A DNA stretch of 64,000 nucleotides from an uncultured Thermococci archaeon (GTDB taxonomy: Archaea; Methanobacteriota_B; Thermococci; Methanofastidiosales; B48-G16), in contig CAZQQT010000002.1 of NCBI GenBank assembly GCA_964595645.1, positions 32,001 through 96,000 on the forward strand, read 5' to 3'. Under the pieces are notes generated by a model that did not search any database, was not told the DNA's origin, and saw nothing but the letters and a program-made list of their open reading frames with translations. The translations under genes were made by a program, and so were the position numbers. Positions 21,758 through 50,263 of this stretch are shown in pieces; the first letter of the stretch is position 1, and each line of letters opens with the position of its first letter.

Positions 21758-23299
21758 TTAAATTTCTTCTCTTTCTTTTAACCCATCTATCATTTCTTTG
21801 AGTTTCTCTTTCTCACTTTTCTTTCTATATTGTATTGCTTTTGTTGCGAATATCGAATCTCCCTTGAAAATTTCCATACGTACCCTCCCATCTATATATA
21901 AGGGGATAGGAACATCAAATATGTGGAGAATTGTGGGAACAATATCAACGATCTCTGCGGTAACCTCTCTTCCTTCCACAATCTCTTTTCCGTACGCGAA
22001 GAAGACACCATGTTGCCTATGACCCGGTTGCGCTATTAGGTTCTTTCTTTTTTCGCTAATACCGTGTTCTTTCACTGTTACTATCAGATCTGGAAGTGCA
22101 GGATTCTGAATTGAATATAGTTCTTCTTTAGAGAAAATTTCTTTTATACTTTCTTCTTCAGATAATTTTTCTATGATTTCATTTCTAATTTCTCTATACT
22201 CAGATGTATCATCCTTTATTACTTCTTTATTAATGTATATATAAGAAGGGAATCCAACAGAATACGCCTGGGTACGTGACCAGTCAATACTATCATAAGA
22301 GAGAGTAGTACGCGCAGTTGAGAATTTTTTTAATCTTTTTATAATTGTTCTGGGTAAAAGTTTTACCAACTGGTGCAACCTTAGCGTTGTAGAGAGTTTT
22401 AACATAGTAGATTTATCAAGTCGAGATGTTTTCTCTTCTTTACTTTTTAAAAATCCATTTTCTGACAGCCATTTATTAAATGAAGGTATGAGTTCTAGAA
22501 GCCCGAACCCATGATCGGATACGATAAACAGTATCGTCTCTTCATCGATGTGCCGGAGGATCTGCCCCACAATATCATCTATTTTCATATATAGTCGTTC
22601 AATAGAATTGTTCAAGGTATTATTTTTTTCATATCCTATGTAGCGATCGTCCCAAAAACACCAGAAATTATGCTGGATCTTATCTGGATTTTGAAACTGA
22701 ACGATGTAGATATCACATTCCTTTTCTTCTAACACATGGAGGAATATCTCTTTCCTCTTCTCCATCGCCTGTAAAAGATGATCAAAAGAATAGATATTCA
22801 ACTGTTCCATTCCTTCTCCGTGGATCCCCTCATGCTCATGAAATGGATATTTTCCACAATTTTTTTCGATTTCCTCCAATAACGAAGAGGGATAGAACGC
22901 TTTACGTTTATCAGCGGTGAAGGGAAATCCGCTTATAAAGTAGCCGTTTATTTTCGGTGCGGGAAAGGACATTGGCAGGTTCATGACACATGACCTATAG
23001 TTGCTTAACAGATCCCACAGTGGAGGAACCTTGGAATCTTTCAATGTGCAGAGTCTCGTGCCACCATGATCTTTTTTTTCCTTTACGAAATCGTGAATCC
23101 TATGTTTATCTGAGTACACGCCGGTAAAAAAAGAGGGCCATGCAGGAGCTGTAAACGGGGGAATGGTCGATCGGAGAGGACCACTCACACCACCTTTCAT
23201 CACCTTTTCGAAATTTTTTAGCAGTCCCTTTGACACGAAATGGTGTATCAATTCAATATCTGCCGCATCTACTCCGATGACGACCACTCTTTTTTTCAT
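21758..23299 (-). CDS. AlkP-superfamily protein (NPP/type I phosphodiesterase-like)
   Basis: VIGVDA, STIPPFTAPAW..TG, DKIQH, SDHGF, GHRQHG. Confidence 0.88.
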   Translation of the reverse strand: MKKRVVVIGVDAADIELIHHFVSKGLLKNFEKVMKGGVSGPLRSTIPPFTAPAWPSFFTGVYSDKHRIHDFVKEKKDHGGTRLCTLKDSKVPPLWDLLSNYRSCVMNLPMSFPAPKINGYFISGFPFTADKRKAFYPSSLLEEIEKNCGKYPFHEHEGIHGEGMEQLNIYSFDHLLQAMEKRKEIFLHVLEEKECDIYIVQFQNPDKIQHNFWCFWDDRYIGYEKNNTLNNSIERLYMKIDDIVGQILRHIDEETILFIVSDHGFGLLELIPSFNKWLSENGFLKSKEEKTSRLDKSTMLKLSTTLRLHQLVKLLPRTIIKRLKKFSTARTTLSYDSIDWSRTQAYSVGFPSYIYINKEVIKDDTSEYREIRNEIIEKLSEEESIKEIFSKEELYSIQNPALPDLIVTVKEHGISEKRKNLIAQPGHRQHGVFFAYGKEIVEGREVTAEIVDIVPTILHIFDVPIPLYIDGRVRMEIFKGDSIFATKAIQYRKKSEKEKLKEMIDGLKEREEI

Positions 23300-23387
23300 A
23301 GTGTTCCCTTCATTCTTTTCTTTTTAATGATATCCTTACTGTGATAAGAGAAATCCTTAAAAACATGTGAGTATAGAACGACAATAC

Positions 23388-24641
23388 ATGAACATCTCAA
23401 TCATTGGTACAGGCTACGTCGGGCTCGTGACGGGAGCGTGTCTTGCCAATCTCGGCCATACCGTAATCTGTGTTGATATCATACAAGAGAAGGTGGATCT
23501 TATTAATGATAAACAGTCACCAATTTACGAAGAGGGACTGGAGGAAATCCTGCAGGAGACAGTAGGGACAACGCTGTCAGCCACCACGGACCTCAAAAAA
23601 GCTGTCCTTCAGTCTGATATCACGTTTATTTGTGTAGGCACGCCCTCAAAGGAAGATGGATCCATCGATGTCACGGATGTAGCACGCGCTGCAGGGCAGG
23701 TAGGTGCTGCACTCACAGAAAAGAAGAAATACCATCTTGTTGTGGCAAAATCCACGGTTGTTCCGGGAACAACAGAGAAAATAAAAAAAATCATAGAAGA
23801 AACCTCAGGAAACCAACACTTCGGCATCTGTATGAATCCCGAGTTTCTTAGAGAGGGAAAAGCAGTCCACGATTTTATGCATCCCGATCGGATTATAATC
23901 GGCGCCGATGAGAAAAAAAGCGGCGATATGCTCGGCGAACTCTACAAAGATTTTTCATGCCCGATCCTCCGCGTTGATATACGAACGGCAGAGATGATAA
24001 AGTACGCGTCCAACGCGTTTCTCGCAACGAAAATCTCGTTTATCAATGAGATCGGGAACATCTGCAAGAAACTTGGTATTGAAGTGTACGATGTCGCCGA
24101 AGGTATGGGGTTAGACTCGCGGATCTCGCCGAAGTTCCTCCGAGCGGGCTGTGGATTCGGTGGATCATGTTTTCCTAAGGATGTGAAGGCACTGATCGCG
24201 AGAGCGAAGGAGCTGAACTACGATCCCACGCTCCTCGAAAGTGTGATGGACGTGAATGAACGGCAGCCGTTGCGCATGATCGAGCTGCTGAAAAAGAAAA
24301 TTGGATCGCTTGAACATAAAAATATCGGTGTGTTGGGCCTCGCTTTCAAGCCCGAGAGCGACGATATCAGAGAATCCCCCGCGATCCCAATCATCCAGAA
24401 GTTAATAGGCGAACATGCGAATGTCTACGCGTACGATCCTAAAGCGATGGACAATATGAAGGAATATTTCCCAAACATCATGTATAAAGAGAACGCGCAG
24501 AGCGTGATAAACAAAACTGAGGATGTGTTAATAGTTACAGCATGGCAGGAGTTTAAAAATCTCGATTATAAAAAGAAAATAGTAATCGATGGTAGAAAAG
24601 TCCTCGAGAAAAGAAACAACTACGAGGGGATATGTTGGTGA
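23388..24641 (+). CDS. ugd: UDP-glucose 6-dehydrogenase
   Basis: GTGYVG, CVGTP, KSTV, NPEFLREG, GFGGSCFPKD. Confidence 0.95.
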   Translation: MNISIIGTGYVGLVTGACLANLGHTVICVDIIQEKVDLINDKQSPIYEEGLEEILQETVGTTLSATTDLKKAVLQSDITFICVGTPSKEDGSIDVTDVARAAGQVGAALTEKKKYHLVVAKSTVVPGTTEKIKKIIEETSGNQHFGICMNPEFLREGKAVHDFMHPDRIIIGADEKKSGDMLGELYKDFSCPILRVDIRTAEMIKYASNAFLATKISFINEIGNICKKLGIEVYDVAEGMGLDSRISPKFLRAGCGFGGSCFPKDVKALIARAKELNYDPTLLESVMDVNERQPLRMIELLKKKIGSLEHKNIGVLGLAFKPESDDIRESPAIPIIQKLIGEHANVYAYDPKAMDNMKEYFPNIMYKENAQSVINKTEDVLIVTAWQEFKNLDYKKKIVIDGRKVLEKRNNYEGICW

Positions 24642-24645
24642 GACG

Positions 24646-25500
24646 ATGAAAGCGGTCATTCCTGCGGCGGGGCTGGGCACGCGGTTTCTTCCCGCAACAA
24701 AGGCAATGCCCAAGGAGATGCTCCCTGTGGTGGACAAACCGACGATCCAGTACGTGGTAGAGGAGGCCATCGCCTCGGACATTGGGGATATCCTCATTAT
24801 CACGGGGAGAGGGAAACGGGCCATCGAGGATCACTTCGATAAAAGCTTTGAGCTGGAGTATATTCTTGGGGAGAGAAACGAGATCGATCTGTTAACCAAA
24901 GTAAAAAATATCTCAGATCTCGCAGATATCCACTACATCCGACAGAAAGAACAGAAAGGCTTAGGAGATGCGGTCTACTGTGCACGGAAGTTCATCGATA
25001 ACGAACCCTTCGCCGTCCTCCTCGGTGATGATATCGTCCACGCTCCAACACCGTGCACACATCAATTGCTGGATGTATACAGGAAGTACCACACGTCAGT
25101 GGTAGCGCTGGAGGAAGTACCGAAGGAGCAAGTATCACAGTATGGAATAGTACAAGCTGAGAAGGTAAACGATAGACTCTACAAGCTTCAGGATGTAATA
25201 GAGAAACCTACCATGGAAGAAGCGCCGTCCACGCTCTCCGTTCCTGGACGTTACATCCTCACACCCACAATTTTTGAGTGCATCGAGAAAACGACCCCGG
25301 GGAAAGGCAATGAGATCCAGCTCACCGATGCATTGCGATTATTGCTGGATCAGGAAGAGATCTATGGATACACATTTGAGGGAAGACGGTACGACGTGGG
25401 AAATAAGGTTGGGTATATCAAAGCGACACTCGAACTCGCGCTGGAACGGGAGGAGTTAGGAGAAAAGGTAAGAGAGTATTTGGAGGAAATAAAAAAGTAG
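24646..25500 (+). CDS. galU: UTP--glucose-1-phosphate uridylyltransferase
   Basis: AAGLGTRFLPATKAMPKEMLP, GLGDAV, EIQLTDA. Confidence 0.95.
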   Translation: MKAVIPAAGLGTRFLPATKAMPKEMLPVVDKPTIQYVVEEAIASDIGDILIITGRGKRAIEDHFDKSFELEYILGERNEIDLLTKVKNISDLADIHYIRQKEQKGLGDAVYCARKFIDNEPFAVLLGDDIVHAPTPCTHQLLDVYRKYHTSVVALEEVPKEQVSQYGIVQAEKVNDRLYKLQDVIEKPTMEEAPSTLSVPGRYILTPTIFECIEKTTPGKGNEIQLTDALRLLLDQEEIYGYTFEGRRYDVGNKVGYIKATLELALEREELGEKVREYLEEIKK

Positions 25501-25515
25501 GATTTTATTGAAGGA

Positions 25516-26586
25516 TCACAACTCTACTTGAGAATTATCCCCTAGTATCAACTTATGCCCCTTTGGGAGAGTATTGGATGAAGAGTTGATCTCACACCCG
25601 CTTCCAATCAAACTATCAAAAATTCGTTTGCCATCAATGATTTTTGTGTTATTCATCACGATTGACGATTCAACTTCAGTCTCTTGTATCGTCACGTTGT
25701 TGCCGATGGAAGTATATGGGCCAATGTATGCGTTAGGACCAACAGTACAATTTTTCCCAATAACACACGGGCCGCTCAGCACGCACCCCTCTTTTATCAC
25801 GCTTCCTTTTCCTAGGGATACTCTTCCCCTTATTTTTACTCCTTCTTCTACCATCCCATTATTAGTTGTCGAAATCCCATCCAGTATCAAATGATTTGCC
25901 TCCAGAATATCCTCAGGTTTGCCAGTGTCTTTCCACCAGTGTTCTGTGATAGACGCATTGATACTATGACCATGATCCATCAGCCACTGGATTGCATCGG
26001 TAATTTCTAACTCATCGCGCCATGAGGGGGAGATATTGTTTACCGCCTCGAAAACAGGTGCTCGGAATGCGTAGATCCCCACCAACGCTAAATCTGAAGG
26101 AGGGTCCTTCGGTTTCTCGATGAGTTGGACAACATTTCCATTATCATCTAGCTTTGCGACGCCGAACTGCTGCGGATTTCTCACATGGGTGAGAAGAATG
26201 TTCGCTGCACATCCTGAACGCTCAAACTCCTGCACGAACTGTTGGATTCCCTCTTTCAGTAAGTTATCGCCTAGGTACATCACGAAGGGATCGTCTTGGA
26301 TAAATTCTTGTGAGATTAACACTGCATGAGCCAGTCCCTTCGGGTATTTCTGTTCGATGTACGTGATACTCACTCCCCATCGTTCTCCATTGCCGATAGT
26401 CTCCATCACCTGCTCCTTGTTGGGGCCGTATACAACGCCAATATCGGTGATTCCAGCCTCGACAAGATCTTCTATTGCGTAGAATACTATTGGTTTGTTG
26501 GCGACCGGTATCAGCTGTTTTTGACTTGTGTGTGTGATCGGTCGTAGTCGTGTACCAAATCCTCCTGTGAGTACTAACCCTTTCAT
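25516..26586 (-). CDS. rmlA: Glucose-1-phosphate thymidylyltransferase, long form
   Basis: GGFGTRLRPIT..KQLIPVANKP, ELEITDA, WKDTG, C-terminal hexapeptide repeats. Confidence 0.92.
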   Translation of the reverse strand: MKGLVLTGGFGTRLRPITHTSQKQLIPVANKPIVFYAIEDLVEAGITDIGVVYGPNKEQVMETIGNGERWGVSITYIEQKYPKGLAHAVLISQEFIQDDPFVMYLGDNLLKEGIQQFVQEFERSGCAANILLTHVRNPQQFGVAKLDDNGNVVQLIEKPKDPPSDLALVGIYAFRAPVFEAVNNISPSWRDELEITDAIQWLMDHGHSINASITEHWWKDTGKPEDILEANHLILDGISTTNNGMVEEGVKIRGRVSLGKGSVIKEGCVLSGPCVIGKNCTVGPNAYIGPYTSIGNNVTIQETEVESSIVMNNTKIIDGKRIFDSLIGSGCEINSSSNTLPKGHKLILGDNSQVEL

Positions 26587-27401
26587 GCTCTCATCCTCTG
26601 TAATCCTTTCTCTATCCCTACTAGATCTGTGTCTATTTTATTTTTAATTTTTTCTATCGAAAGTGACGAGTCCCGTGGTCTTCTTGCTATTTGATCTAAC
26701 TCTTCACTGATAATAGGTGTAATTAAACCTTTATCTAGGTCAAAAACTTCGGCAATTTTTAACGTGAAATCGTGTCTATTAACTCTTTCACTTCCTGCAG
26801 TGTGGTGCACACCGTGGAGGTTGTTCTCAGCGATTTCTAATAATACTTCCGCTAGATTATCTGCCGATGTGGGCGAGGTGTACTGATCTGTTACAATTTG
26901 TATCTTGTCATTCTTTTTTAGTTGTTTGATAACCCATGTGACGAAGTTCAGTCGTTCATGCCATCCATAGAGGACACTCGTCCGTGCGATCACATAGTCT
27001 TCACAAATTTCTTTGACTTTACGTTCTCCTTCTAGTTTCGTCTTTCCGTAGTAGTTGATAGGATGTGGTTCATCCGTTTCTTTGTACATCCCATTCTCCC
27101 CATCGAAAACGTAGTCTGTGGAGACGTAGATCATTCTAGCATCTACTTCCTGGCACGCCTTCGCAACATTCTCGGTTCCCTTCACGTTGACGTTCCACGC
27201 CTTTTCTTTCTCTACCTCACACCCATCGACATCTGTGAAGGCAGCACAGTGAATCACGACATCAGGGTTACTCCTACGAATGGATCTTCTAATTTTTTCT
27301 GTTGTAATGTCCACCCATCCCTGTGGGTAGACTTTACTATTCGAACAGTGAACAATTTTACTTCCTAAAAGTCCTGTCTGCCCAGTAACGAAGAGCTTCA
27401 A
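26583..27401 (-). CDS. rmlD: dTDP-4-dehydrorhamnose reductase
   Basis: TGQTGLLG, HCAAFTDVD, STDYVFDG, YGKTKLEGE. Confidence 0.93.
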   Translation of the reverse strand: MKLFVTGQTGLLGSKIVHCSNSKVYPQGWVDITTEKIRRSIRRSNPDVVIHCAAFTDVDGCEVEKEKAWNVNVKGTENVAKACQEVDARMIYVSTDYVFDGENGMYKETDEPHPINYYGKTKLEGERKVKEICEDYVIARTSVLYGWHERLNFVTWVIKQLKKNDKIQIVTDQYTSPTSADNLAEVLLEIAENNLHGVHHTAGSERVNRHDFTLKIAEVFDLDKGLITPIISEELDQIARRPRDSSLSIEKIKNKIDTDLVGIEKGLQRMRA

Positions 27402-27467
27402 TTGATCACCTACAATACTATGAGAGTAAAATATTTAAGTATTATCTCATTGTATATAGTGATTTTT

Positions 27468-27935
27468 ATGATAGAAGGTGTTGAAACAAAGAAATTAAAG
27501 GTAATTCCTGATGAACGCGGTTGGCTCATGGAGATTTTACGCTGTGATGATGATCTTTTCGAGAAGTTCGGCCAGGTGTACATTACCACTGCGTACCCTG
27601 GCATAGTCAAAGCGTGGCACTACCATAAGAAGCAGACCGACAACTTCACCTGTGTAAAGGGAATGATGAAGGTCGCCCTTTGCGATGGACGGGAGGATTC
27701 ATCCACATACAACGAGGTAAACGAGTTCTTTGTGGGAGAGAAAAATCCTCTGATGATAAAAGTTCCGCCCTTTGTGTACCATGGATTCAAAGCTATTGGA
27801 AATGAGACTGCGTATTTCTTAAGCGTCCCCACACTTCCGTACAACTACGAGGAGCCAGATGAGTACAGACTACCTCCCGACACCGATGAGATCCCCTACA
27901 ACTGGATCCTAGATCCCCATAAAAAACACGGGTGA
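27468..27935 (+). CDS. rmlC: dTDP-4-dehydrorhamnose 3,5-epimerase
   Basis: DERGWL, KAWHYHKKQ, HGF cupin. Confidence 0.9.
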   Translation: MIEGVETKKLKVIPDERGWLMEILRCDDDLFEKFGQVYITTAYPGIVKAWHYHKKQTDNFTCVKGMMKVALCDGREDSSTYNEVNEFFVGEKNPLMIKVPPFVYHGFKAIGNETAYFLSVPTLPYNYEEPDEYRLPPDTDEIPYNWILDPHKKHG

Positions 27936-27939
27936 GACG

Positions 27940-28893
27940 GTGAAGCTTTTAGTGACTGGTGGCGCAGGATTTATCGGGAGTAATTTCATCCGATACATGC
28001 TCGATACGTATCCTGATTATGAAATCATCAATTTGGATAAGCTCACCTACGCAGGGAACCTGGACAACTTACGGGATGTGGAGGATGATCCACGGTACAC
28101 GTTCATTAAAGGCGATATCTGTGATAAAACAGTTGTGAAGAAAGCAATGAGAGATTGCGATGTTGCGATCAATTTCGCTGCTGAAAGCCATGTCGATAGG
28201 AGCATTGAAGGACCAGAGCCATTTATCAACACAGACGTCTTCGGTACCTTCGTCTTACTCGAAATGGCAAAAAAGTATGAACTAGAAAAATACGTTCAAA
28301 TTTCTACTGATGAAGTCTACGGTTCGATTCGAGAAGGATCCTTTAAAGAAACGGATCCACTCAAACCAAACTCACCATACTCGGCCTCAAAGGCTTCCGC
28401 CGATCTCTTGGCGAGGTCGTACTATGAAACCTACGGACTACCCGTAGTAATCACTCGTTCCAGCAACAACTACGGTCCGTACCAGTATCCAGAAAAGCTG
28501 ATCCCTTTGTTCACGATCAACGCGCTGAATAATGAGCCACTCCCTGTGTACGGTACCGGAGAGAACGTGAGGGACTGGCTCTACGTTCTTGATAATTGTT
28601 CGGGAATTGATACCGTTTTACATAAGGGAAAAGTTGGCGAAGTATATAATATCGGAGGCAACACAGAAAAAACGAACTTTGAAATCACTCGCTTCATTCT
28701 CGAAGAATTGGATAAACCCGAATCACTGATAGAGTTTGTGGAGGATAGACAGGGGCATGACTTCCGCTATGCGCTCGATACAACAAAAATCGAGCACATA
28801 GGGTGGGAACAGAAACATGAATTTGAAGATGCGATAAAGGAGACCATCGAGTGGTACAAAGCGAACGAGTGGTGGTGGAGAAAGGTAGTATAG
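27940..28893 (+). CDS. rmlB: dTDP-glucose 4,6-dehydratase
   Basis: TGGAGFIG, AAESHVDRSI, STDEVYG, YSASK. Confidence 0.96.
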   Translation: MKLLVTGGAGFIGSNFIRYMLDTYPDYEIINLDKLTYAGNLDNLRDVEDDPRYTFIKGDICDKTVVKKAMRDCDVAINFAAESHVDRSIEGPEPFINTDVFGTFVLLEMAKKYELEKYVQISTDEVYGSIREGSFKETDPLKPNSPYSASKASADLLARSYYETYGLPVVITRSSNNYGPYQYPEKLIPLFTINALNNEPLPVYGTGENVRDWLYVLDNCSGIDTVLHKGKVGEVYNIGGNTEKTNFEITRFILEELDKPESLIEFVEDRQGHDFRYALDTTKIEHIGWEQKHEFEDAIKETIEWYKANEWWWRKVV

Positions 28894-28899
28894 GGATTT

Positions 28900-30300
28900 T
28901 CATAATTTCCCTTGCTTTTTCAGCTGCTCAATTTTTCCTCCGATCTTAATTTTCTCTATTTCTAATTTTTTTCCTGTTTCAAGATCTTCTAATTTTTTTA
29001 ATAGCTCTTTTCTAAGTTTTTCTACCTTTCCCATTCTTTCTGAGGATATATCTCTAATTTCTCTTGGATCTTCTTTTAAATCATAAAGTTCCATCTTTTT
29101 ACCCTTACAAATTAGTTTATAACGATCTGTTCTGTAACAATGCAACGTTATACCATTTTTAAAGGATTTTTTCTGATTGGGGTATGTACATTGAATTCCT
29201 TGAGAAAGCACAGTAGTTTTAGAAGAATTTTTTGATACAGAATTACCCATAAAATCAGATGATTTTTCTATATCAAGTATATCCATAAGTGTGGGAGCTA
29301 TATCAATCAGTCCAACTTGGGTTTTGAATTCTCTTTCATTCGAAATACGAGTTAGAATGTCTTTTGACTTACTCCAAAAAATTAAGGGGATATGTATTAG
29401 TTCATCAAAGAAATTAATTGGCATGTTTCTACCACCGTGACCATAATATTCTCTTTCACCTAGTGCTTGACCGTGATCTGCTGTAATAATTAGGAGGGTT
29501 TTCTTAAGATCACATAATTTCTCTAATTTTTCCATTAGTTCTCTTATTTTTTCATTTACACACCTAATTTCATTATCATAGAGATCAATGATCTTTTTTC
29601 TTCCTTTCAACGATAGACTATTAGGATCGTGTATTGTTTTATCCATAAGCTCTTTAATTTTCTCTTTCGGAATTTTTTCCCCAAAAAAAATCTTTTTAGG
29701 GATATATGGTTCGTGCACATCCATGTAATGGATCCAAAGGTAGAATCTTTTTTTTAATCGGTTTTCTAGAGAAGAAATAACTTCTTCATTAATTCTATCG
29801 GCACTGCTATATGGAGGGACTATCTTTTTTTCTCTAAAAACATCATATGCATTTTTAATAATATTATAAAATAAAGAATCTTTTTTAGTGTATCTCGTGA
29901 ATATTTTCTTTATTTTTGCCACACTCTTTCTTCGTACTCCAGTAATCAATGGATCTGTAAAAATTTCAAATCCCTTACTATAATTATACAGAGAAAAAAA
30001 GGGATTGGAATGAACTCCTATTGTGGAAAATCCTTCTTTATTTAGAGTTTCTGCGAGAGTAGTCCGTGTAGAAAGATCTGTATAATCACCTCCTCGAGTC
30101 AAAGGATACGTTGATGTTTGAAGGGAGGTAATTGATGCGGTGGTATAAGGGGCACTTGCTATAGCTTTTTTGAAAATAATACCCTCTCTAGCTAATCTAT
30201 CGATTGTTGGGCTAGTATTTCTTTTATAACCGTAGCAGCTCAGGTGATCTGCTCTTAAAGCGTCAATTGTGATCAAAATTATGTTTTCTATATCTTTCAC
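28900..30300 (-). CDS. Sulfatase-like AlkP protein lacking CxPxR
   Basis: ITIDALRADHL, PYTTASI, HYMDVHEPY, ADHG. Confidence 0.88.
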   Translation of the reverse strand: MKDIENIILITIDALRADHLSCYGYKRNTSPTIDRLAREGIIFKKAIASAPYTTASITSLQTSTYPLTRGGDYTDLSTRTTLAETLNKEGFSTIGVHSNPFFSLYNYSKGFEIFTDPLITGVRRKSVAKIKKIFTRYTKKDSLFYNIIKNAYDVFREKKIVPPYSSADRINEEVISSLENRLKKRFYLWIHYMDVHEPYIPKKIFFGEKIPKEKIKELMDKTIHDPNSLSLKGRKKIIDLYDNEIRCVNEKIRELMEKLEKLCDLKKTLLIITADHGQALGEREYYGHGGRNMPINFFDELIHIPLIFWSKSKDILTRISNEREFKTQVGLIDIAPTLMDILDIEKSSDFMGNSVSKNSSKTTVLSQGIQCTYPNQKKSFKNGITLHCYRTDRYKLICKGKKMELYDLKEDPREIRDISSERMGKVEKLRKELLKKLEDLETGKKLEIEKIKIGGKIEQLKKQGKL

Positions 30301-42291: not shown

Positions 42292-42295
42292 GTTA

Positions 42296-43834
42296 TCACA
42301 CAAAGAATCTCTTAAATATTTTTTTCGCCCACTTAAAGTTTAGTCCGTACTTTTTTCCGAAAGCTATCAAAATATCTAGATCTTCTTCTTTCAGTGCTCT
42401 CGTTACAAGGATAAAGAATCCGTAAATAATACCATAAATAATGCTTTTTAGTAAGAATGTATACGTATTTGCAGGAATAATCTGATTCAGCATGAAAAAA
42501 ATAAAAAGAGAGATAAATGCACTCCCAGCATACTTTAGATAATATGCAAGATGAAAGTCTGTCGGCAGCAGTGTTCTAAGCTTCAAAAAGTTGATAATGT
42601 TCCAGAGCGCCATGCAAAACGATGTGGCAAAAGCAGCACCTTCTATTCCAAATCTTGGAATGAGAAGTATATTCATTGCAATATTCAGAAGGACCACACA
42701 TGATTGGACTTTAAAAATGAAGTTTTGTTTTTCATACACTTGCAGTAGTATACCTACAGCACCGACAATGGCGTTAATAAATGTACCGAAGGATAAAATA
42801 ATCAATGCCATGTATGCAGGTTTATATTCCGCTCCAAAAAAGAGAAAAATAAAATTTTCGGGGAAAAATACAAAGAGGAGAAAGAGAGGAAAGGTGAAGA
42901 GAAAAATCCATCGTGTCACTGTCCCATATGTTTCTTTTAAATCATTAAACTGTTTTTTTGTGTATAATTCAGACGCAATAGAGTAGAATAATTGATTGAA
43001 AGACATCAAAACTAAGATCAGGATAAACGCCAACGGATATGCTGCGTTGTACAGTCCAACGTAGTACTCTTTCATGAAATATCCTATGAGAAAACTGTCA
43101 CTTCGTCTGAGTACAGTACCGAGAAGACCAACGAACAATAAAGGGATAGAGAAAGAAAGTACTCTTCCTCGATCGATTGTTTCGATTTTATTTTTAAAGA
43201 TCGAGAATATCTTTGTTTCCAAAATGAGAAAAGTTAATACTGAAGAGATAACAAAAGAGAATAAGTACACGTAACTCACATCGATGAGCGTACCTCCCAT
43301 AAAAAGCACGATAAATGTCAACACAAAGATCAATGCTCCTCTCCCAAAAGTTTCTATCAACACTTTCTCTTTCGGTCGTTTAAAAGACAAAAAAACATAT
43401 AAAAGAAGATAAAAAATAGTATAAAATGGTATTACAAATGAAAATATCTTTAAAACAGATATTAATTGCTCTGATCCAAAAAAAGCACTTATAGTTTCAG
43501 TAAAAAAGTAAATAATAGACGCAATAATTGATCCTGCCACGAATGATAATCCCAACCCGAAGACGAGAAGATGCTTTATTTTGCCAGTTTCTTCCTTCGT
43601 ATTATACTCGGGGATAAACTTTCTAAAAGCCTGTGCGAACCCGAGACATGAGAGAGTCATTGAAACCCCTACAACAATAAGCGCCAACGAAAGTACGCCG
43701 TAGTCTTCTGGAGACAAGTAGCGCGCAACCAGTACTTTATAGAAGAAATCGAAGGCTCCAAGCAGCGCATACCCAACAAATATGATGCTTCCACCTTTCG
43801 CTATCTGTCGGAGCGCGATCTGTTTCTCGTCCAT
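42296..43834 (-). CDS. Oligosaccharide flippase (Wzx/AglR-like)
   Basis: ARYLSPEDYG, VGLYNAA, LIPRFGIEGAA. Confidence 0.92.
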   Translation of the reverse strand: MDEKQIALRQIAKGGSIIFVGYALLGAFDFFYKVLVARYLSPEDYGVLSLALIVVGVSMTLSCLGFAQAFRKFIPEYNTKEETGKIKHLLVFGLGLSFVAGSIIASIIYFFTETISAFFGSEQLISVLKIFSFVIPFYTIFYLLLYVFLSFKRPKEKVLIETFGRGALIFVLTFIVLFMGGTLIDVSYVYLFSFVISSVLTFLILETKIFSIFKNKIETIDRGRVLSFSIPLLFVGLLGTVLRRSDSFLIGYFMKEYYVGLYNAAYPLAFILILVLMSFNQLFYSIASELYTKKQFNDLKETYGTVTRWIFLFTFPLFLLFVFFPENFIFLFFGAEYKPAYMALIILSFGTFINAIVGAVGILLQVYEKQNFIFKVQSCVVLLNIAMNILLIPRFGIEGAAFATSFCMALWNIINFLKLRTLLPTDFHLAYYLKYAGSAFISLFIFFMLNQIIPANTYTFLLKSIIYGIIYGFFILVTRALKEEDLDILIAFGKKYGLNFKWAKKIFKRFFV

Positions 43835-43884
43835 GAACTTACCAAGCGAGTATAATTTATAAATCTACCAGTAGGACACGAGAA

Positions 43885-44901
43885 CTATTCGCTCAGGTTC
43901 TCACAGAAAAATTCTAGCTTTTTATAGTCGGGTTCAACGCTATCTGTATAGAAGTCAAGTCCAAAATCAGCTGCTACTTTCATTATTCTCTCGATTTGAT
44001 CACTTTTAAGATTTTCCTTCCATTTACGCAATTGATAGTCTTTTTTCACTACTTTTTGGACATCTCCTTGTGTGACCTTACTTGGAATAGTAAGGTGTTT
44101 TACCGCGTTGTTTGGCACAGGTTCACCTACAAAATCATAGAGTCGTTGCAGTTCGTCCACTCCTTCAGCTACAAGTTTTTCATAGGGCACGATATACCAA
44201 TTTTTAGCGTACTTCGATGTGAGTGGAATATATGTATCGAGAGACCACACAGCAGCTAATATCTCTTCTTTATATTCCAAACCTTTAATTTTTTCACGAA
44301 ATTGAGGATAATCGGATTCAAGTTCTCGAACCTCTTTTTCCAATTGTTCTTTATGAGGTCGTTTTTCATCGAAGGTGGGCGTGAGATGATTGTATCCGTA
44401 ATAGCCACTTTTTAACTGGGAAGCGATTGTTGCGCAAGGATGCCGTACCACTAGGACCACACTTCGCACAGCAAGATGGTTGTGTATCCATGGCAAAAGC
44501 CTGTTTGCACGGATCGTCTTCACGACGATTTTCGTACTCAGCACACGATGAAGGAGGAAATGAGGTTCAACACGGATGTACGGGCTCTGACTGATGGTCT
44601 TTCCAGAGAATGCCGTTTCAAGATATTTTTTCCCGCGTCCCCATCGTTCTTCTGGCGGTATGTATGTTCTCGATTGAAATCCGACCTTATACGACTCTGG
44701 AAACCATTTTGGATGGAGGGGTTCAAACAGTGTCGTGTAGTGAGGCAACCACCCAAGGAGCTCCATTACCCACGTACTACCCGATCGAGGAGTGCTAGCA
44801 ACAAGAATTGTATCCTCTATCCTCATATCCTTGCTCTTTATGGCTATCGTATCAAATAGACATGCACCCTTTCTTCTAATCCCGTATAGGATACCTCTCA
44901 C
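43885..44901 (-). CDS. PAPS-dependent sulfotransferase
   Basis: STPRSGSTW, LFEPL, VRHPCA..S, YEKLV; GTG start overlapping upstream stop. Confidence 0.85.
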   Translation of the reverse strand: MRGILYGIRRKGACLFDTIAIKSKDMRIEDTILVASTPRSGSTWVMELLGWLPHYTTLFEPLHPKWFPESYKVGFQSRTYIPPEERWGRGKKYLETAFSGKTISQSPYIRVEPHFLLHRVLSTKIVVKTIRANRLLPWIHNHLAVRSVVLVVRHPCATIASQLKSGYYGYNHLTPTFDEKRPHKEQLEKEVRELESDYPQFREKIKGLEYKEEILAAVWSLDTYIPLTSKYAKNWYIVPYEKLVAEGVDELQRLYDFVGEPVPNNAVKHLTIPSKVTQGDVQKVVKKDYQLRKWKENLKSDQIERIMKVAADFGLDFYTDSVEPDYKKLEFFCENLSE

Positions 44902-45761
44902 CTCGTAAAGAGAGACACAAGCACACCGACACTCCATCCGATGTTTATGAGGATTAATACAATAAAGCCGTATAATCTATATGAGTTCAAACTCAGAACA
45001 ACGGACAGCATGTGCACAAAAAACAGGATCAGTGTAATTTTCCAACTGAGAATTATCAACAGCAAAAGGACCAATGGCACGAACCGTAACCAAAAGGACA
45101 TGTCGAAATATTTCCCGTGAGAAAAGAACGTTTTTCTGCTTCTTTTCCCTATCTTGTACTCTTTTTTCATTACACCTCGTACAGTTTTAGGGTCTTTATG
45201 ATACGCAACAGCGTCATTATCAATTTTTACTATGTACCCTTGCTCTTCTATTTGCCATGAGAGATCAACATCTTCTCCAACTTCCCCCTTACTCAAAAGA
45301 TCGCGAAATTTTTTCCGGAATGCCATTGTCCCGCCGGAAGCCCAGTCTCTCCTTTTATAGAACAGTCCTCTCAATGAATCAAGACCCTTCGCGATCCAGT
45401 TGTTCCCGTAGGATTGGATATAACCTCCAACTATCCCGACGTGTTCATCATCAAAGTGGTTGATGATATTCTCAATAAATTTCTCATCGAAAATCTCGTC
45501 GGCGTCTACTGTAATGATTATCTCGCCCTGTACCTTAGACACACCGAAATGTCGGGCATTTCGGAGACCGCGGTGATCTCTTTCAAAAATTGTCATATCG
45601 AAATCATTTTCATAATTTTTCACTATCTCTATAGTGTTATCAGTGGAGCCGTCATCCACCACTATAAGTTCAAAATTCTTATATGTCTGGTTTTTTAACG
45701 ACTCTAAGCACTCTTCTATATTTTTTTCTTCGTTGTACACACAGAGCACTACAGAGTTCAT
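44898..45761 (-). CDS. GT2 glycosyltransferase
   Basis: VYNEE, DDGSTD, DAD, GEDVDL. Confidence 0.9.
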   Translation of the reverse strand: MNSVVLCVYNEEKNIEECLESLKNQTYKNFELIVVDDGSTDNTIEIVKNYENDFDMTIFERDHRGLRNARHFGVSKVQGEIIITVDADEIFDEKFIENIINHFDDEHVGIVGGYIQSYGNNWIAKGLDSLRGLFYKRRDWASGGTMAFRKKFRDLLSKGEVGEDVDLSWQIEEQGYIVKIDNDAVAYHKDPKTVRGVMKKEYKIGKRSRKTFFSHGKYFDMSFWLRFVPLVLLLLIILSWKITLILFFVHMLSVVLSLNSYRLYGFIVLILINIGWSVGVLVSLFTR

Positions 45762-45802
45762 TGTGATACCATATGGAGAGAATTTAAATTAGTTTCCTTT
45801 CA

Positions 45803-46780
45803 CTACCTAGAAATTCCATATACACATCCCATCCCGTAACAGATGACACTCGTTATGTACGTAATGAAGATACGTCCCACATAGTTGATTTTCTTGTGTT
45901 TTGGATAGGTAGAAAGCGAAAAAATGAGAGAAGATGCCACGAAGAAAAGAAGTATCAACAATAATAAACGGAATAGAGTGAATGATATAACATAAGAAGG
46001 AATCAAAAAGATCATTGAGATAATATAGGCTATAGGAATTGAATAGAGCGCTTTAAACGATTTCGGATGTTTTTTTACTATCTCTGCCCTTGCTTTTCCA
46101 TACTCCCACATTCGGTTTCCCCATTGTGATAAACTTGATCTCATTTTGTGATACACCACAGCCTCAGGCGTATACAATAGTGTATAGCCTTGCTTTCTTA
46201 TTCTATGGTTGAGTTCAGCATCCTGTCCTGTGGCAAACACTTCGTCATACGTAAGATTTCTTAAAATCTCTTTTTTGTAGAGCGCATTGCAGTTGGGAAT
46301 ACTCTCAACTACTTTTTCCTCTTCAAAATGACCTCCTTGAGTAGACCCCAATCCTCCCCACCATGTGTCCACCATATATCCTAGAGCCTCTACAAAAGCA
46401 GATGCGTTTTTTGGTATCCTTGTGTCCCCGCCAATGCCTGCAACTTCGTTATTTTTCCTCAAAATTGTTGAAACTAATGATTCAAGCCAGGTTTCTTCAA
46501 CTTCTACGTCAGCATCGGTCAGCGCAATATACTCTCCTTCGGCGTGTTCTACGCCAATGTTTCTTCCAGTAGCGGCATTTTTCTTTGGATTGTTTAACAG
46601 TGTTACCGCATCATACTGTTCCACAACCTCTCTGGTGCTGTCGGTGGATCCGCCGTCTACCACAATGATCTTATACTTTTCTTTGGGGTACGTTTGGTCA
46701 ATGAGAGAATCTAAGCACTCTTCTATATTTTTTTCTTCATTATAGGTTGGTACCACCACAGACACAGCAGGATATCCCAT
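45803..46780 (-). CDS. GT2 glycosyltransferase with C-terminal TMs
   Basis: VVVPTYNEE, DGGSTD, TDAD, QDAEL. Confidence 0.9.
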   Translation of the reverse strand: MGYPAVSVVVPTYNEEKNIEECLDSLIDQTYPKEKYKIIVVDGGSTDSTREVVEQYDAVTLLNNPKKNAATGRNIGVEHAEGEYIALTDADVEVEETWLESLVSTILRKNNEVAGIGGDTRIPKNASAFVEALGYMVDTWWGGLGSTQGGHFEEEKVVESIPNCNALYKKEILRNLTYDEVFATGQDAELNHRIRKQGYTLLYTPEAVVYHKMRSSLSQWGNRMWEYGKARAEIVKKHPKSFKALYSIPIAYIISMIFLIPSYVISFTLFRLLLLILLFFVASSLIFSLSTYPKHKKINYVGRIFITYITSVICYGMGCVYGISR

Positions 46781-46852
46781 TCCAATTCCTTCTCTATAAA
46801 AACTATAATACCTGATTCTAATAAGTCTTGCTCTTATAAACCTCACCCAACC

Positions 46853-46881
46853 TTTTTAAATAATGACATATAACGATATGT
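46853..46881 (+). promoter_or_regulatory. TATA-like box plus ACATAT-N4-ATATGT inverted repeat upstream of RHH-sat operon
   Basis: tttttaaat then acatat-aacg-atatgt (46866-46881). Confidence 0.45.
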
Positions 46882-46904
46882 AATTGAAATATATTGGTGA
46901 TAGA

Positions 46905-47132
46905 ATGCCGAAGGAAAAAAAGTACACAACGGTGTCAATTCCAAAACAGCTGGCAGAGAAGATAGAGGGAAGAATAGAGGACACAGGATTCAACTCCGTG
47001 TCCAGCTACGTCACGTACGTTCTACGAGAAGTGCTCTCAAGCCTCGAGGAAGAGAAAAAGGAAGAAGTATTCAGCAAAGAGGAAGAAGAAAAGGTGAAAG
47101 AGAGACTGCGATCACTGGGATACCTCGACTGA
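46905..47132 (+). CDS. Ribbon-helix-helix (CopG-like) protein with acidic ERLRSLGY tail
   Basis: YTTVSIP..L..KI..GFNSVSSYVTYVLREVL; tail EEEEKVKERLRSLGYLD; GGTGA RBS. Confidence 0.85.
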   Translation: MPKEKKYTTVSIPKQLAEKIEGRIEDTGFNSVSSYVTYVLREVLSSLEEEKKEEVFSKEEEEKVKERLRSLGYLD

Positions 47133-47142: not shown

Positions 47143-48270
47143 ATGAATGAACCCCACGGCGGTCGGTTAGTGCGTCGTATCCTCCCGGAAAAAAATAAAG
47201 AGAAAATTTTAGAACAAAAAGAAGAGTTTCAAAAAACACAGTTAACCGATGAACAGGTAAAAGACGTAAAAAACATTGGCTTCGGTGTGTACTCTCCATT
47301 GAAGGGATTTTTGCATGAACAGGAGTTTGAAAGTGTTGTAAACGGCATGCGGCTCCCCAACGAGCTCGCTTGGTCCGTTCCTATCGTGCTAGACACGGAT
47401 AAAGACGTCGACGATGAGATACTCCTGACCGATAAACGAGGAAAGGTGATTGCACTGATGGAGGTAGAGGATCGGTACACCTACAACAAACACCATGTCG
47501 TGAAGAACGTGTTCAACACGAAGGAAAAGGATCATCCCGGCGTGGCCGATGTCTACGAGATGGGTGACACACTTCTCGGCGGTGACATCCAGCTTATCGA
47601 CACGGAGAAAACGCCGTTTTACCAGATGTACCTCGAACCGAAGGAAACACGAATCCTCTTTAAAGAGCTGGGGTGGGATACTATTGTTGCATTCCAGACG
47701 AGAAATGCGCCCCATCGAGGGCATGAGTACCTCCAGAAGTCCGCGCTGGAGATTGTGGATGGCCTCTTCATCAACCCGGTGATCGGCAAAAAGAAGCCGG
47801 GAGATTTTACGGATGAGGTCATCCTCACCGCGTACAAGATCCTCATGGAGCACTACTTCCCGAAGAATCGTGTAGTCATGAGTATTCTCCCAACGAAAAT
47901 GCGGTACGCGGGGCCGAGAGAGGCAATTTTCCATGCCATCGTACGAAAAAACTATGGATGCACCCATTTTATTGTGGGCCGTGACCATGCGGGGGTAGGC
48001 GACTACTACGGCACGTATGACGCACAGAAAATCTTTGAGAAGTTTGACTACGAGGAGCTGGAGATTACCCCGTTGAAGTTCGAACATGCCGGCTACTGTG
48101 AGAAGTGTGGGGGATACGTCTCCATGAAGACCTGTCCGCACGAAAAAATACCGCCGAGCGGGACGAAAATACGGAAGATGCTCCAGGCCAAGGAACTCCC
48201 GCCGGAGGAGCTCATGCGGAAGGAAGTTGCCCAGTACATTGTGGGCGTAGAGAACCCATTCGTGATGTAG
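47143..48270 (+). CDS. sat: Sulfate adenylyltransferase
   Basis: FQTRNAPHRGHE, MRYAGPREA, GRDHAG. Confidence 0.96.
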   Translation: MNEPHGGRLVRRILPEKNKEKILEQKEEFQKTQLTDEQVKDVKNIGFGVYSPLKGFLHEQEFESVVNGMRLPNELAWSVPIVLDTDKDVDDEILLTDKRGKVIALMEVEDRYTYNKHHVVKNVFNTKEKDHPGVADVYEMGDTLLGGDIQLIDTEKTPFYQMYLEPKETRILFKELGWDTIVAFQTRNAPHRGHEYLQKSALEIVDGLFINPVIGKKKPGDFTDEVILTAYKILMEHYFPKNRVVMSILPTKMRYAGPREAIFHAIVRKNYGCTHFIVGRDHAGVGDYYGTYDAQKIFEKFDYEELEITPLKFEHAGYCEKCGGYVSMKTCPHEKIPPSGTKIRKMLQAKELPPEELMRKEVAQYIVGVENPFVM

Positions 48271-49167
48271 ATGATCGTGCACCACTGGGACTGTGACGGG
48301 ATCTGTTCGGCGGCGTTACTGAAGGCCATTGAGGACGGAGAGCTATTCGTTCCGCGAAATTTCTTCCTGACGAACAACGAGAAACAGATCCTTACAAAGA
48401 AGGAGCCAGAGACTATCTACCTCGTCGATATCGCCCTCCCCAGTGAGGATATTCAGTTCCTCAGGGAGTTAGCGGAGCTGCATATCTTCGATCACCACAA
48501 GCGAGAGGAGCAAGAGGAACACTTCCACGTCGATGAGAATGCGCCGGCGACAGCAGTGATTATTCACGACTACTACGACCTTTCCAATGATCTTCTGCCC
48601 GTACTTGGTGCCGTCGGGGATGAAGAGGAGGCAATTCTTGACACACCATATAAAGAAACAGTGGAGTATGTGATGGAGGAGTACAGTCTCACCTTCGATC
48701 AACTCCTGCGAATCACTGAGCTCCTCGACTCACACTACATCCTCAACGATTTCGACGCCGTGAAAAAAAGCGTGGATTTTGTATTACGACATGGGGATGA
48801 TCCACACAGTATTCTGGAGAGCCCCACACTAAACGAGAACGTGAAAACAATAGAGCACACGATTGAAAACGGTATCGAAGACCACACCGTTGAGAATGCG
48901 TATGTGCTGTGTGAGATCGATACGCCGTACAGGATTATCTCACAGGTTACCAGAAGACTCTTTAAAAGGTATCCTCAGAAAACGGTGATTGTGGTGAACA
49001 GGAAGAAGGGAAATATCTACGTGCGATCACACAACGATCTCTCCCCGCTTATTACTCACGCGAAGGAACGATACTGCGCAGGCGGAAAAACGCATGTATG
49101 CGGTATTATTTTACCAGAAAAGGATATAAACGACTATATAGAAACAATAAAAGAACTCACAGGGTGA
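48271..49167 (+). CDS. DHH phosphoesterase (probable PAP phosphatase)
   Basis: HHWDCDGI, DHH, GGK..CG; lies between sat and sulfotransferase. Confidence 0.8.
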   Translation: MIVHHWDCDGICSAALLKAIEDGELFVPRNFFLTNNEKQILTKKEPETIYLVDIALPSEDIQFLRELAELHIFDHHKREEQEEHFHVDENAPATAVIIHDYYDLSNDLLPVLGAVGDEEEAILDTPYKETVEYVMEEYSLTFDQLLRITELLDSHYILNDFDAVKKSVDFVLRHGDDPHSILESPTLNENVKTIEHTIENGIEDHTVENAYVLCEIDTPYRIISQVTRRLFKRYPQKTVIVVNRKKGNIYVRSHNDLSPLITHAKERYCAGGKTHVCGIILPEKDINDYIETIKELTG

Positions 49168-49171
49168 GAAA

Positions 49172-49723
49172 ATGGTAAATTATATTGTGTCGGGCATTGA
49201 ACGATCAGGGACTTCAATGATGATGCAGATTCTCGATAGAGGAGGAGCTCCCGTGGCGTACGACGAGTCCCGGGAACCGGACTACCACAATCCAAAGGGC
49301 TACTACGAATTGGAAGGTGGCAAGGTCATTGAGAAACTCAAGGATGGTACCTTCTCCTTCGACAAGTATGAGGACAAAGTGGTGAAAATCACCGCCTACG
49401 GACTCAAGTTCCTCCCGGAACGAACGTACAAAGTGGTCTACATGACACGGGATCTCGATGAGGTGATGGATTCCATGGAAAAAATGGCGGGATCCGTCGA
49501 TAGAGAGAAAGAGAAGCCACTGTTTCAAAAGTTGCACGAGTTTTCACTGGATCTCATGGAAGATCGGGATGACATCGACTACCTCGTAGTGAACCACAGG
49601 GATGTCATCGAGAATCCAGTAGAGGAGACGAAGCGAGTCAATGACTTTTTGGGGGGAATGCTTGACGTGGAGACAGGAGCAGAAGCGGTGGATCCCGATC
49701 TCCATCGAAACGTACGAGAATGA
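49172..49723 (+). CDS. Small sulfotransferase-family protein
   Basis: VSGIERSGTSMMMQIL, NPKGYYE, YMTRD..S. Confidence 0.82.
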   Translation: MVNYIVSGIERSGTSMMMQILDRGGAPVAYDESREPDYHNPKGYYELEGGKVIEKLKDGTFSFDKYEDKVVKITAYGLKFLPERTYKVVYMTRDLDEVMDSMEKMAGSVDREKEKPLFQKLHEFSLDLMEDRDDIDYLVVNHRDVIENPVEETKRVNDFLGGMLDVETGAEAVDPDLHRNVRE

Positions 49724-49732
49724 GGTGAAGGC

Positions 49733-50263
49733 ATGACAGGATTTGTACTATGGTTTACTGGATTATCAGCGTCGGGGAAGTCCGCGGTCGCTGATAGGGT
49801 TGCGGAGCGATTGAAGAAACGGGGACTCAAGATAGAACGGCTCGACGGCGATATCGTGCGGAAAAGTCTTACCAAGGATCTCGGGTTTACCGAGGAGGAT
49901 CGCAATGAGAATATCAAACGGGTGACCTTCGTTGCCAAGTTGTTATCGAGGAACGATGTAGGCGTCATCGCCTCCTTTATCTCGCCCTACCGCGCAGTAC
50001 GGGATCATGTGCGAGAAGAGGTCACGAACTTCGTGGAGATATTCGCCCACTGTCCTCTCGAGGTATGCATTGAGCGGGATCCGAAGGGCCTCTATAAAAA
50101 GGCATTGAACGGGGAGGTAGACAATTTCACCGGCATTTCTCATCCGTATGAAGAGCCAAAGGATCCGGACATACGACTGGAGACGCACAAGGAGAGCATC
50201 GAAGAAAGTACGGAAAAAGTCATTAAAAAAATCGAAGCAATGGGTCTTATTTCTTCGGATTGA
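49733..50263 (+). CDS. cysC: Adenylyl-sulfate kinase
   Basis: WFTGLSASGKS, LDGD, RDPKGLY, FTGIS.PYE. Confidence 0.96.
   Translation: MTGFVLWFTGLSASGKSAVADRVAERLKKRGLKIERLDGDIVRKSLTKDLGFTEEDRNENIKRVTFVAKLLSRNDVGVIASFISPYRAVRDHVREEVTNFVEIFAHCPLEVCIERDPKGLYKKALNGEVDNFTGISHPYEEPKDPDIRLETHKESIEESTEKVIKKIEAMGLISSD

Follow-up and report, generated by a model that had tools for sequence, protein, structure and literature searches.

The window analysed here is a 64,000-nt stretch from an uncultured Thermococci archaeon. It holds a glycosylation locus next to a PAPS operon, and all genes that the initial annotation had claimed for it are present and correctly placed. The features are as follows (proteins are named by the first coordinate of their genes):

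21758-23299, minus strand: NPP-fold protein with Thr50 and a degenerate tail at the LGY-arm position of a bacterial fusion
23367-28893, no strand assigned: nucleotide-sugar genes (UDP-glucose dehydrogenase, GalU, RmlA/D/C/B-like), named by sequence reading rather than a family-model scan
28900-30300, minus strand: sulfatase-fold protein with Thr53 and a basic tail without Tyr
30328-31728, minus strand: sulfatase-fold protein with Thr51 and a basic tail without Tyr; probable glycan sulfotransferase
31820-46846, minus strand: GT2 glycosyltransferases, two PMT-type membrane glycosyltransferases, UDP-GlcNAc 2-epimerase and a flippase (42296-43834)
32790-34313, minus strand: NPP-fold protein with Thr50, tail absent
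43885-44937, minus strand: classical 350-aa sulfotransferase, which can use PAPS directly
46853-46890, plus strand: TATA-like box, then three tandem 10-bp boxes, the best such array in the genome; probable RHH operator
46905-47132, plus strand: RHH (CopG-like) protein with an acidic helix and an LGY tail, whose Tyr73 is encoded at 47121-47123
47143-48270, plus strand: ATP sulfurylase (sat), above NCBIfam cut-offs
48271-49167, plus strand: DHH-family PAP phosphatase (E 3e-24 to PDB 8A8K)
49172-49723, plus strand: minimal P-loop sulfotransferase that is proposed to load the tyrosine of LGY
49733-50263, plus strand: APS kinase (cysC)

An AglB-like gene follows 13 kb past the window end, and the gene content suggests that a surface glycan carrying sulfate is made by this locus. 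A putative frameshift lies at about 37570.

The RHH, sat, DHH, small sulfotransferase and cysC genes are separated by 10, 0, 4 and 9 bp and keep the CopG, sat, DHH, cysC order of the thermococcal PAPS operon. Family assignment, together with homology to a characterised enzyme, shows Sat and CysC to be the makers of PAPS and the DHH enzyme to remove PAP. The operon itself is not new: the regulator-sat-DHH-cysC arrangement of Pyrococcus yayanosii is already published as a sulfate-activation cluster (PYCH_17520-17560, PMC8268124). In the excerpt of that account considered here, the cluster consists of a CopG protein, sat, a DHH PAP phosphatase, one more enzyme and cysC. The additional slot is filled there by an NPP, published as a possible pyrophosphatase, whereas our window has a P-loop sulfotransferase; the same excerpt makes no mention of a CopG tail. 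Across genomes, RHH adjoins sat in 71 of 80 loci, which is above chance, and the slot is occupied by an NPP-fold clade in 34 loci and by the sulfotransferase in 28, never by both. Such mutual exclusion suggests that the two do the same job.

A second compared system is the ATPS/APSK/PAPP set of M. thermolithotrophicus (PMC10322725); a difference from these systems is that the window genome lacks reduction genes. The absence of sulfate-reduction and formylglycine-generating genes, which had been noted for the window, extends to the whole near-complete genome (99.96% completeness): a profile search returned no FGE, no NIR/SIR domain was detected and no anSME scored above cut-off, while the three PF01507 matches are GMP-synthase/TtuA-like by sequence. 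Assimilatory or dissimilatory sulfate reduction is therefore ruled out.

The four AlkP proteins had been grouped as Thr-type enzymes. Thr is indeed found in all of them, but they belong to two different families: 28900 and 30328 to PF00884, with Thr53 and Thr51 at the nucleophile position, and 21758 and 32790 to PF01663 (above cut-off), with Thr50. As annotated, they have no signal peptides or membrane anchors, judged by hydropathy only (no hydrophobic segment above 1.5). 28900 and 30328 adopt the sulfatase fold, matching S1 sulfatases with a TM of about 0.7, but differ from the S1 formylglycine enzymes in lacking the C/S-x-P/A-x-R signature (PMC6189696), in which Thr takes the nucleophile position and Ile replaces Arg, and in having no maturase. 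The nucleophile is Thr in 119 of 120 relatives. Given the Thr and the absence of FGE and anSME, the pair cannot be classical formylglycine sulfatases; Thr is in any case not convertible by these maturases.

AlkP/sulfatase-fold proteins within a glycosylation cluster are also known from haloarchaea, and their addition of sulfate is not undescribed. Knock-outs of Agl30 and Agl31 in Halobacterium salinarum (PMC11980604) and of Agl7 in Haloferax volcanii (PMC3892788) lose glycan sulfate, the donor and mechanism being left open by the authors. The likeness to the window consists of the AlkP core and the glycosylation cluster rather than a direct sequence comparison. 28900 matches 43 plasmid records, at least 39 of them haloarchaeal, with up to 38% identity, and its nearest plasmid relatives are haloarchaeal glycan-locus 'sulfatases'. 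Primer ends revealed LGY tails on Agl30, Agl31 and VNG1063H; in contrast, the window enzymes have no tail Tyr, and the window is further set apart by sat, cysC, the small sulfotransferase and a regulator that bears a free-standing LGY tail. That the AlkP proteins add rather than remove sulfate, as the initial annotation held for all four, has good support for the sulfatase-fold pair from the Agl7, Agl30 and Agl31 knock-outs, and we regard it as very probable for these two. For the NPP-fold enzymes, transfer of phosphate groups is a possible alternative.

Alternatively, all four could be hydrolases or phospho-group transferases acting in NDP-sugar turnover, phosphodiester or phosphonate decoration or transient desulfation, with sulfation left to the classical sulfotransferase 43885. 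PF01663 members are nucleotide pyrophosphatases, 21758 adjoins nucleotide-sugar genes and VNG1063H showed no role in sulfation; the Thr-type enzymes LtaS and EptA, which share nucleophile and fold with the sulfatase-fold pair, move phosphate esters, though 28900 and 30328 differ from them by having neither membrane domain nor lipid donor. By eye, apparent phosphonate and LicD genes stand close to a third NPP, which is encoded on contig C4; this setting would also fit. On the other hand, Agl7, Agl30 and Agl31 knock-outs lose sulfate and Agl30/31 expression adds it, control searches of H. volcanii gave neither a PF13469 nor an FGE match, and the AlkP genes co-occur with the PAPS operon. We therefore consider this explanation improbable for the set, and likelier, at roughly one chance in three, for the two NPP-fold proteins alone. 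Nor does the tree support the latter as operon-type loaders: they lie outside the sat operon and outside the 100%-supported clade of operon-type (PYCH_17550-like) NPPs, to which 32790 is 31% identical, their best E value being 4e-65 versus 1e-165 or better for members.

The RHH protein comprises 75 aa, ends in LGYLD and carries the sole clear acidic LxxLGY tail among the ORFs of the genome. Its Tyr is found in 231 of 231 RHH tails and is never Phe, nor is it in sulfatase-type LGY tails (n=36), while a similar helix on CysC has 7 Phe plus other residues at this position. The helix is portable over unrelated folds (AlkP, CysD-like, CysC, sulfotransferase). Since Tyr-less tails stay conserved and occur on a sulfotransferase too (loci L174 and L175), it must have a job without Tyr. 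The RHH recognition strand is conserved, and the putative operator lies at its own promoter, as expected of an RHH/CopG regulator. Upstream regions (n=111) contained 115 exact 10-bp boxes versus 5.1 in shuffles, spaced by 10 or 20 bp; a sigma-70 promoter scan is inapplicable to archaeal DNA. From these boxes we predict that RHH is most likely a true autoregulator and working repressor, and the idea that it is nothing but a carrier, its DNA-binding part being vestigial, was discarded. The picture drawn by the initial annotation was incomplete, overlooking the operator boxes, the published operon and the capacity of 43885 for direct sulfation.

In 49172, R11-S12-G13-T14-S15, R93 and S101 are invariant among 126 relatives; we take them to be the 5'-phosphosulfate loop and the 3'-phosphate Arg/Ser, roles assigned by known family chemistry, that is, the hallmarks of a P-loop PAPS sulfotransferase. 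A PDB sequence search found nothing relevant. Foldseek placed TPST on top (E 1.7e-5, TM 0.56), with the phenol sulfotransferases Teg12, StaL and SULT1 ranking level, so that this rank does not discriminate for a Tyr acceptor. 49172 resembles TPST1/2 in its fold and its proposed protein-Tyr acceptor, but is only about 13% identical, 183 aa long, cytoplasmic and would act on a helical substrate. TPST products are end products, not donors. The level ranking would equally suit a shuttle in which 49172 sulfates a diffusible phenol as donor for the AlkP enzymes, as Cpz8/Cpz4 reportedly do in the two-step sulfation of caprazamycin. However, the part of the window close to the operon showed no recognisable gene for making a shuttle, and the invariant Tyr and the fused linker described below would be left unexplained, which makes such a shuttle very unlikely.

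Among full-length bacterial relatives of 49172, 101 of 103 are fusions of an NPP-type AlkP, an acidic LxxLGY linker, TPR and the sulfotransferase. The linker Tyr is present in 101 of 101, and the motif occurs elsewhere in these proteins 4 times. Acceptor-side residues differ at several contact positions between archaeal and fused sulfotransferases. In a complex model, the RHH tail docked on 49172 with a score of 0.77 (best control 0.08). Of 80 solved complexes, 58 attained the docking mark, compared with 2 among 110 mismatched pairs, a rough calibration (own alignments, ADP riding along). Runs shared at least 84% of contacts with a partner pLDDT of at least 68, and the predicted position of Tyr73 touches residues 10, 74 and 76, which lie next to the PAPS loop; the contacts listed do not include Glu46, the presumed catalytic residue. 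Solved TPST-peptide structures exist, and the docking pass may in part reflect the model's prior exposure to them. Together, fusion and model lend real support to one step of the relay that the initial annotation had proposed, the transfer from the small sulfotransferase to the RHH Tyr.

Most of the modelled contacts are helix packing, which would also be expected if the unmodified LGY helix were a tag that binds partners, either to bring a sulfation complex together or to draw the repressor away from DNA by titration, with PAPS used directly. Its portability, its survival without Tyr and the finding that C-terminally tagged Agl30/31 still function in H. volcanii fit this explanation. The strict Tyr-not-Phe invariance across 368 tails and linkers does not, nor does the modelled Tyr73 at the PAPS loop, and we judge it rather improbable. 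Somewhat less so, though still unlikely, is a role in sensing only: since RHH is most likely an autoregulator, 49172 could sulfate the repressor tail as a read-out of PAPS level, while the AlkP Thr takes sulfate from PAPS. The operator boxes are conserved, RHH stands first in the operon, RHH and the small sulfotransferase persist in genomes in which no AlkP was found, and the docking model fits equally. Moreover, the NPP-fold clade replacing the sulfotransferase in the operon slot implies that the AlkP fold may use PAPS itself. But sensing gives no account of the same arm being fused to acceptor enzymes, and leaves the AlkP-LGY-sulfotransferase fusions, in which scans detected no RHH or other DNA-binding domain, unexplained.

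We favour a relay in which 49172 would move the sulfo group from PAPS to Tyr73 of the RHH tail, as fusion, invariance and complex model suggest. The aryl sulfate would then be cleaved by 28900 and 30328. Because the formylglycine route of sulfate release is closed to a Thr nucleophile, sulfo-Thr would pass the sulfate to a sugar hydroxyl, probably of a lipid-linked glycan before flipping, as Agl7, Agl30, Agl31 and the enzyme chemistry indicate. In relatives whose own chain includes the LGY arm, these steps would run in cis. The NPP-fold pair are possible further acceptors, the weakest part of the proposal. Since RHH probably acts at its own promoter as well, how far the tail is loaded may at the same time feed back on the PAPS operon. 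We put the probability of the full relay at about 0.5. Its step from Tyr to the AlkP Thr is suggested by fusion and distribution patterns only. Against the relay stands that RHH has a probable operator, and a scarce regulator is a poor carrier; regulators usually are scarce.

By analogy, the RHH tail might work like the tyrosine shuttles DltX and PatA, whose invariant C-terminal Tyr, fused or on a separate small protein, hands its group to an enzyme Ser/Thr (PMC12148441). These differ in carrying an acyl instead of a sulfo group, in using membrane MBOAT/SGNH enzymes and in crossing the membrane, and there is no homology; neither an MBOAT-SGNH pair among the scanned genes nor an FxYxxF motif on the RHH tail was found. 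A literature search for the motif, a sulfate relay, the fusion and a sulfotyrosine carrier, covering journals other than subscription ones, returned nothing relevant. That is, we found no description of the relay itself, while its sulfatase-fold and operon parts are published.

More tentatively, the relay could be one case of a widespread sulfo-tyrosine carrier, hitherto undescribed, in which a loader, either a minimal P-loop sulfotransferase or an NPP-fold enzyme, would sulfate a portable LGY arm. Thr/Ser AlkP enzymes now annotated as sulfatases or phosphodiesterases would then transfer the sulfate from the arm to glycans, and in many archaea a DNA-binding repressor would bear the arm and be both carrier and sensor. 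The relay would bear on how Agl7, Agl30 and Agl31 obtain their sulfate, H. volcanii having no detectable classical PF13469 sulfotransferase. If the relay is right, glycan loci would hold many transferases among their 'sulfatase-like' and 'phosphodiesterase' genes, and the thermococcal PAPS operon without known consumer would gain one. A sulfotyrosine donor that is bound to protein and carried by a transcription factor would then represent a new cofactor logic.

Co-occurrence was the check suggested in the initial annotation. Of 133 genomes, 29 encode sulfatase-type AlkP proteins; RHH is present in 26 of these, mostly with less than 35 kb between the AlkP genes and the operon, kin not being independent. 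Among the 26 genomes with an RHH operon of the small-sulfotransferase type (fragmented assemblies), only 4 have a sulfatase-type AlkP and 7 have neither AlkP type, and all 26 match the classical sulfotransferase family; the same-genus genome G005 shows no AlkP. Across the Thermococci search and the RHH-operon genomes, the tail Tyr is absent in 42 of 43 Thr-type sulfatase-fold proteins and in 25 of 25 glycan-locus NPPs, while it is present in 11 of 11 haloarchaeal-plasmid and Bathyarchaeia-like contig proteins. Where the canonical RHH operon occurs, AlkP tails thus appear to be nearly always without Tyr, which haloarchaeal tails keep, a pattern confounded with lineage. The family tree, with the same 78 core residues, has about six tail-state changes, 2 of them forced by strong branches. 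A strict rule that the free tail occurs only where the enzymes lack one was abandoned: at loci L177 and L192 RHH-LGY stands beside AlkP proteins keeping their own LGY, and genomes G030 and G032 encode both.

The gene set that the initial annotation had described was confirmed in place by gene calls and family scans of the window. The genes that matter most here, by start or range in the window, are:

21758, NPP-fold AlkP protein (PF01663), Thr nucleophile
28900, sulfatase-fold AlkP protein (PF00884), Thr nucleophile
30328-31728, sulfatase-fold AlkP protein (PF00884), Thr nucleophile
32790, NPP-fold AlkP protein (PF01663), Thr nucleophile
43885, classical large sulfotransferase
46905, RHH, a CopG-like regulator with acidic helix and LGY tail (Tyr73)
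49172-49723, small sulfotransferase

The glycosylation region (29-37% GC versus about 43%) comprises GT2 and PMT-type transferases, a flippase, the classical sulfotransferase and the four AlkP proteins; an AglB-like gene lies 13 kb beyond the window end. The five-gene PAPS operon (RHH, sat, DHH, small sulfotransferase, cysC) is oriented away from this region, and its DHH product is similar to a PAP phosphatase that has been characterised. The lack of sulfate-reduction and formylglycine-generating genes, claimed for the window, extends to the whole archaeal genome (1.97 Mb, 99.96% complete): no FGE, sulfite-reductase domain or true PAPS reductase was found, and no anSME over the cut-off. PAPS is therefore usable for group transfer only. 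Judging by the composition of its phylum and the names of close hits, the genome probably belongs to class Thermococci but not to the Thermococcaceae. On the minus strand at 37237-38154, a GT2 gene ends at 37567 but stays readable in a second frame as far as about 37237; this frameshift is either real or an assembly artefact. By eye, a nucleotidyltransferase gene paired with a HEPN/DUF86-like gene stands at either side of the locus (19993-21378 and 51892-52529), and one HEPN-like gene appears broken. A second glycan locus outside the window (contig C4 of the same genome, 152030-171463) holds a third NPP-fold protein, whose tail lacks Tyr (163076-164641); nearby genes resemble, by eye, PEP mutase, phosphonopyruvate decarboxylase and LicD.

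The system had been proposed as undescribed, but the reaction direction and the operon were both known already, since Agl7/Agl30/Agl31 knock-outs and the Pyrococcus yayanosii operon have been published. Deletion of the sulfatase-fold genes agl30 and agl31 in Halobacterium salinarum deprives the N-glycan of sulfate, and Haloferax volcanii made to express them gains it; how they act was left open by the authors (PMC11980604). Deletion of agl7 yields a lipid-linked glycan without sulfate (PMC3892788). For P. yayanosii the operon has been described with CopG interpreted as a regulator and an NPP tentatively as a pyrophosphatase, and the authors note the lack of any sulfotransferase hit (PMC8268124). 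The mechanism of sulfate transfer is probably new here, within an already known kind of sulfation system.

The claim that the AlkP proteins add sulfate stood best for 28900 and 30328, for which Agl genetics, fold and Thr make it very likely. Both have the S1 sulfatase fold (predicted structure of 30328: pLDDT 93, TM about 0.7 to that fold), carry Thr where formylglycine needs Cys or Ser, and lack the signature Arg. In Ser-substituted sulfatases, as Recksiek is said to have reported in 1998, the hydroxyl nucleophile traps the sulfo-enzyme, which favours transfer over hydrolysis for these two. The substrate is less certain for 21758 and 32790, divergent NPP-fold proteins that the tree places outside the conserved operon-NPP clade; their predicted sulfo transfer is only slightly favoured. 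Residues C396, C399 and H403 do not vary within the 30328 family and may form a metal site outside the sulfatase core. Nearly all matches to 28900 on 72,556 plasmids were haloarchaeal, and wherever the neighbourhood was inspected they lay in glycan loci.

Within the phylum, sulfatase-type AlkP is present in 29 of 133 genomes, usually less than 35 kb from the PAPS operon, and 26 of these 29 are RHH-positive versus 72 of all 133, counts that kinship of the genomes inflates. The expected co-occurrence appeared in this set, but among 26 genomes whose RHH operon is of the small-sulfotransferase type only 4 carried a sulfatase-type enzyme and 7 neither AlkP type; the classical sulfotransferase family was matched in all 26.

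The proposed structure-model check, run for 49172 with ADP and RHH residues 45-75, gave a score of 0.77 versus 0.08 for the best control; 58 of 80 solved complexes attain the score mark, as do 2 of 110 mismatched pairs, figures that apply only approximately to the present case. The runs shared at least 84% of contacts (partner pLDDT at least 68). In the model, the tail helix packs against residues 102-127 of 49172, and Tyr73 contacts residues 10, 74 and 76, next to the PAPS loop. Glu46 of 49172, the likely base, is invariant, yet missing from the listed contacts. TPST-peptide complexes have solved structures, so memory may contribute to the score. The model supports binding of the RHH tail by 49172 but does not show it, and we consider action on the RHH Tyr reasonably probable. 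Some atlas clusters similar to 49172-49723 are virus-dominated, a lead only.

Longer relatives of 49172, nearly all bacterial and about 845 aa, combine an NPP-type AlkP that has Ser as nucleophile, an acidic linker whose LxxLGY motif lies around residue 400, TPR repeats, and a sulfotransferase 35-45% identical to 49172. The linker motif occurs in 101 of 103 full-length fusions, with Tyr in every one of these. The three proposed relay parts thus share a single chain in an independent lineage, our strongest evidence for functional coupling, though the fusion does not reveal which way the transfer runs. Upstream of three fusion genes lies a conserved micro-ORF of 47-88 aa whose Gly/Leu-rich stretch ends in WR (L256:9857-10000, L257:9735-10001, L259:9832-10008). 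These fusion genes adjoin genes for secreted proteins (T9SS tail, Calx-beta giant) that may be substrates.

Across 80 loci, RHH lies directly 5' of sat in 71, and the slot near cysC is occupied by the small sulfotransferase in 28 and by an NPP in 34, never by both. The operon NPP occurs in 65 genomes, 63 of them RHH-positive; the three genomes with the small sulfotransferase carry none. In the largest family, 48 of 62 RHH-positive genomes have no PF13469 sulfotransferase. Two genomes with neither sulfotransferase nor NPP in the operon carry a Ser-type NPP, sister in the tree to the tail-less NPP of a Halopiger sulfation locus. We infer three interchangeable loaders using PAPS or APS: small sulfotransferase, operon NPP and Ser-type NPP. 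Two glycan loci with no sat or cysC nearby (L191:10011-13622, L036:1566-3380) hold a tail-less NPP and a CysD-like protein ending LGYM.

Of the 1,870 members of the RHH family, 231 were examined; all of these end in LGY, none with Phe. Acidic helix and LGY also terminate haloarchaeal and Bathyarchaeia-like AlkP proteins, CysD-like proteins and, as read from published primers, Agl30, Agl31 and VNG1063H. Three window AlkP enzymes keep a Tyr-less helix at the tail position and one has no helix; in sampled Thermococci and other RHH-operon genomes, Tyr is missing from 42 of 43 sulfatase-fold proteins of the Thr type and from all 25 NPP proteins of glycan loci. Within the 30328 family, the tail state changes about six times while the core stays the same, and in three loci (L177, L192, L193) stand-alone RHH-LGY genes adjoin tail-less or Tyr-less AlkP genes. 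The pattern has exceptions and is confounded with lineage. A 237-aa sulfotransferase (L174:1018-1731, L175:1015-1725) terminates in the same Tyr-less basic helix as the window AlkP proteins. RHH-LGY genes occur in pairs in G009, G013 and G133 (L194:1495-1916), the last labelled Chloroflexota, where the pair lies 5' of a TauE-like transporter and CysD. One CysC (L006:10206-10814) bears an additional fused acidic LGY tail.

The scarcity of the sulfatase-type enzyme in the 26 genomes, all of which match the classical sulfotransferase family, and the Tyr-less helix, itself conserved and present also on a sulfotransferase, count against the relay. We give the full path, including the putative Tyr-to-Thr step, a probability of about 0.5; it turns an open question into a testable one.

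RHH is most likely a working autoregulator, judging from conserved, regularly spaced boxes upstream that form a predicted operator, and this keeps a reading of it as a sensor alive. In 111 upstream regions (Thermococci, Thermoplasmata, Asgard, other archaea) there were 115 exact 10-bp boxes versus 5.1 in shuffles, with a pattern derived from these same regions; the spacing of 10 or 20 bp is independent of that choice. The window array (46861-46890), adjoining a TATA-like box, is the genome's best match, and the second-best lies on contig C8 near 30736, minus strand.
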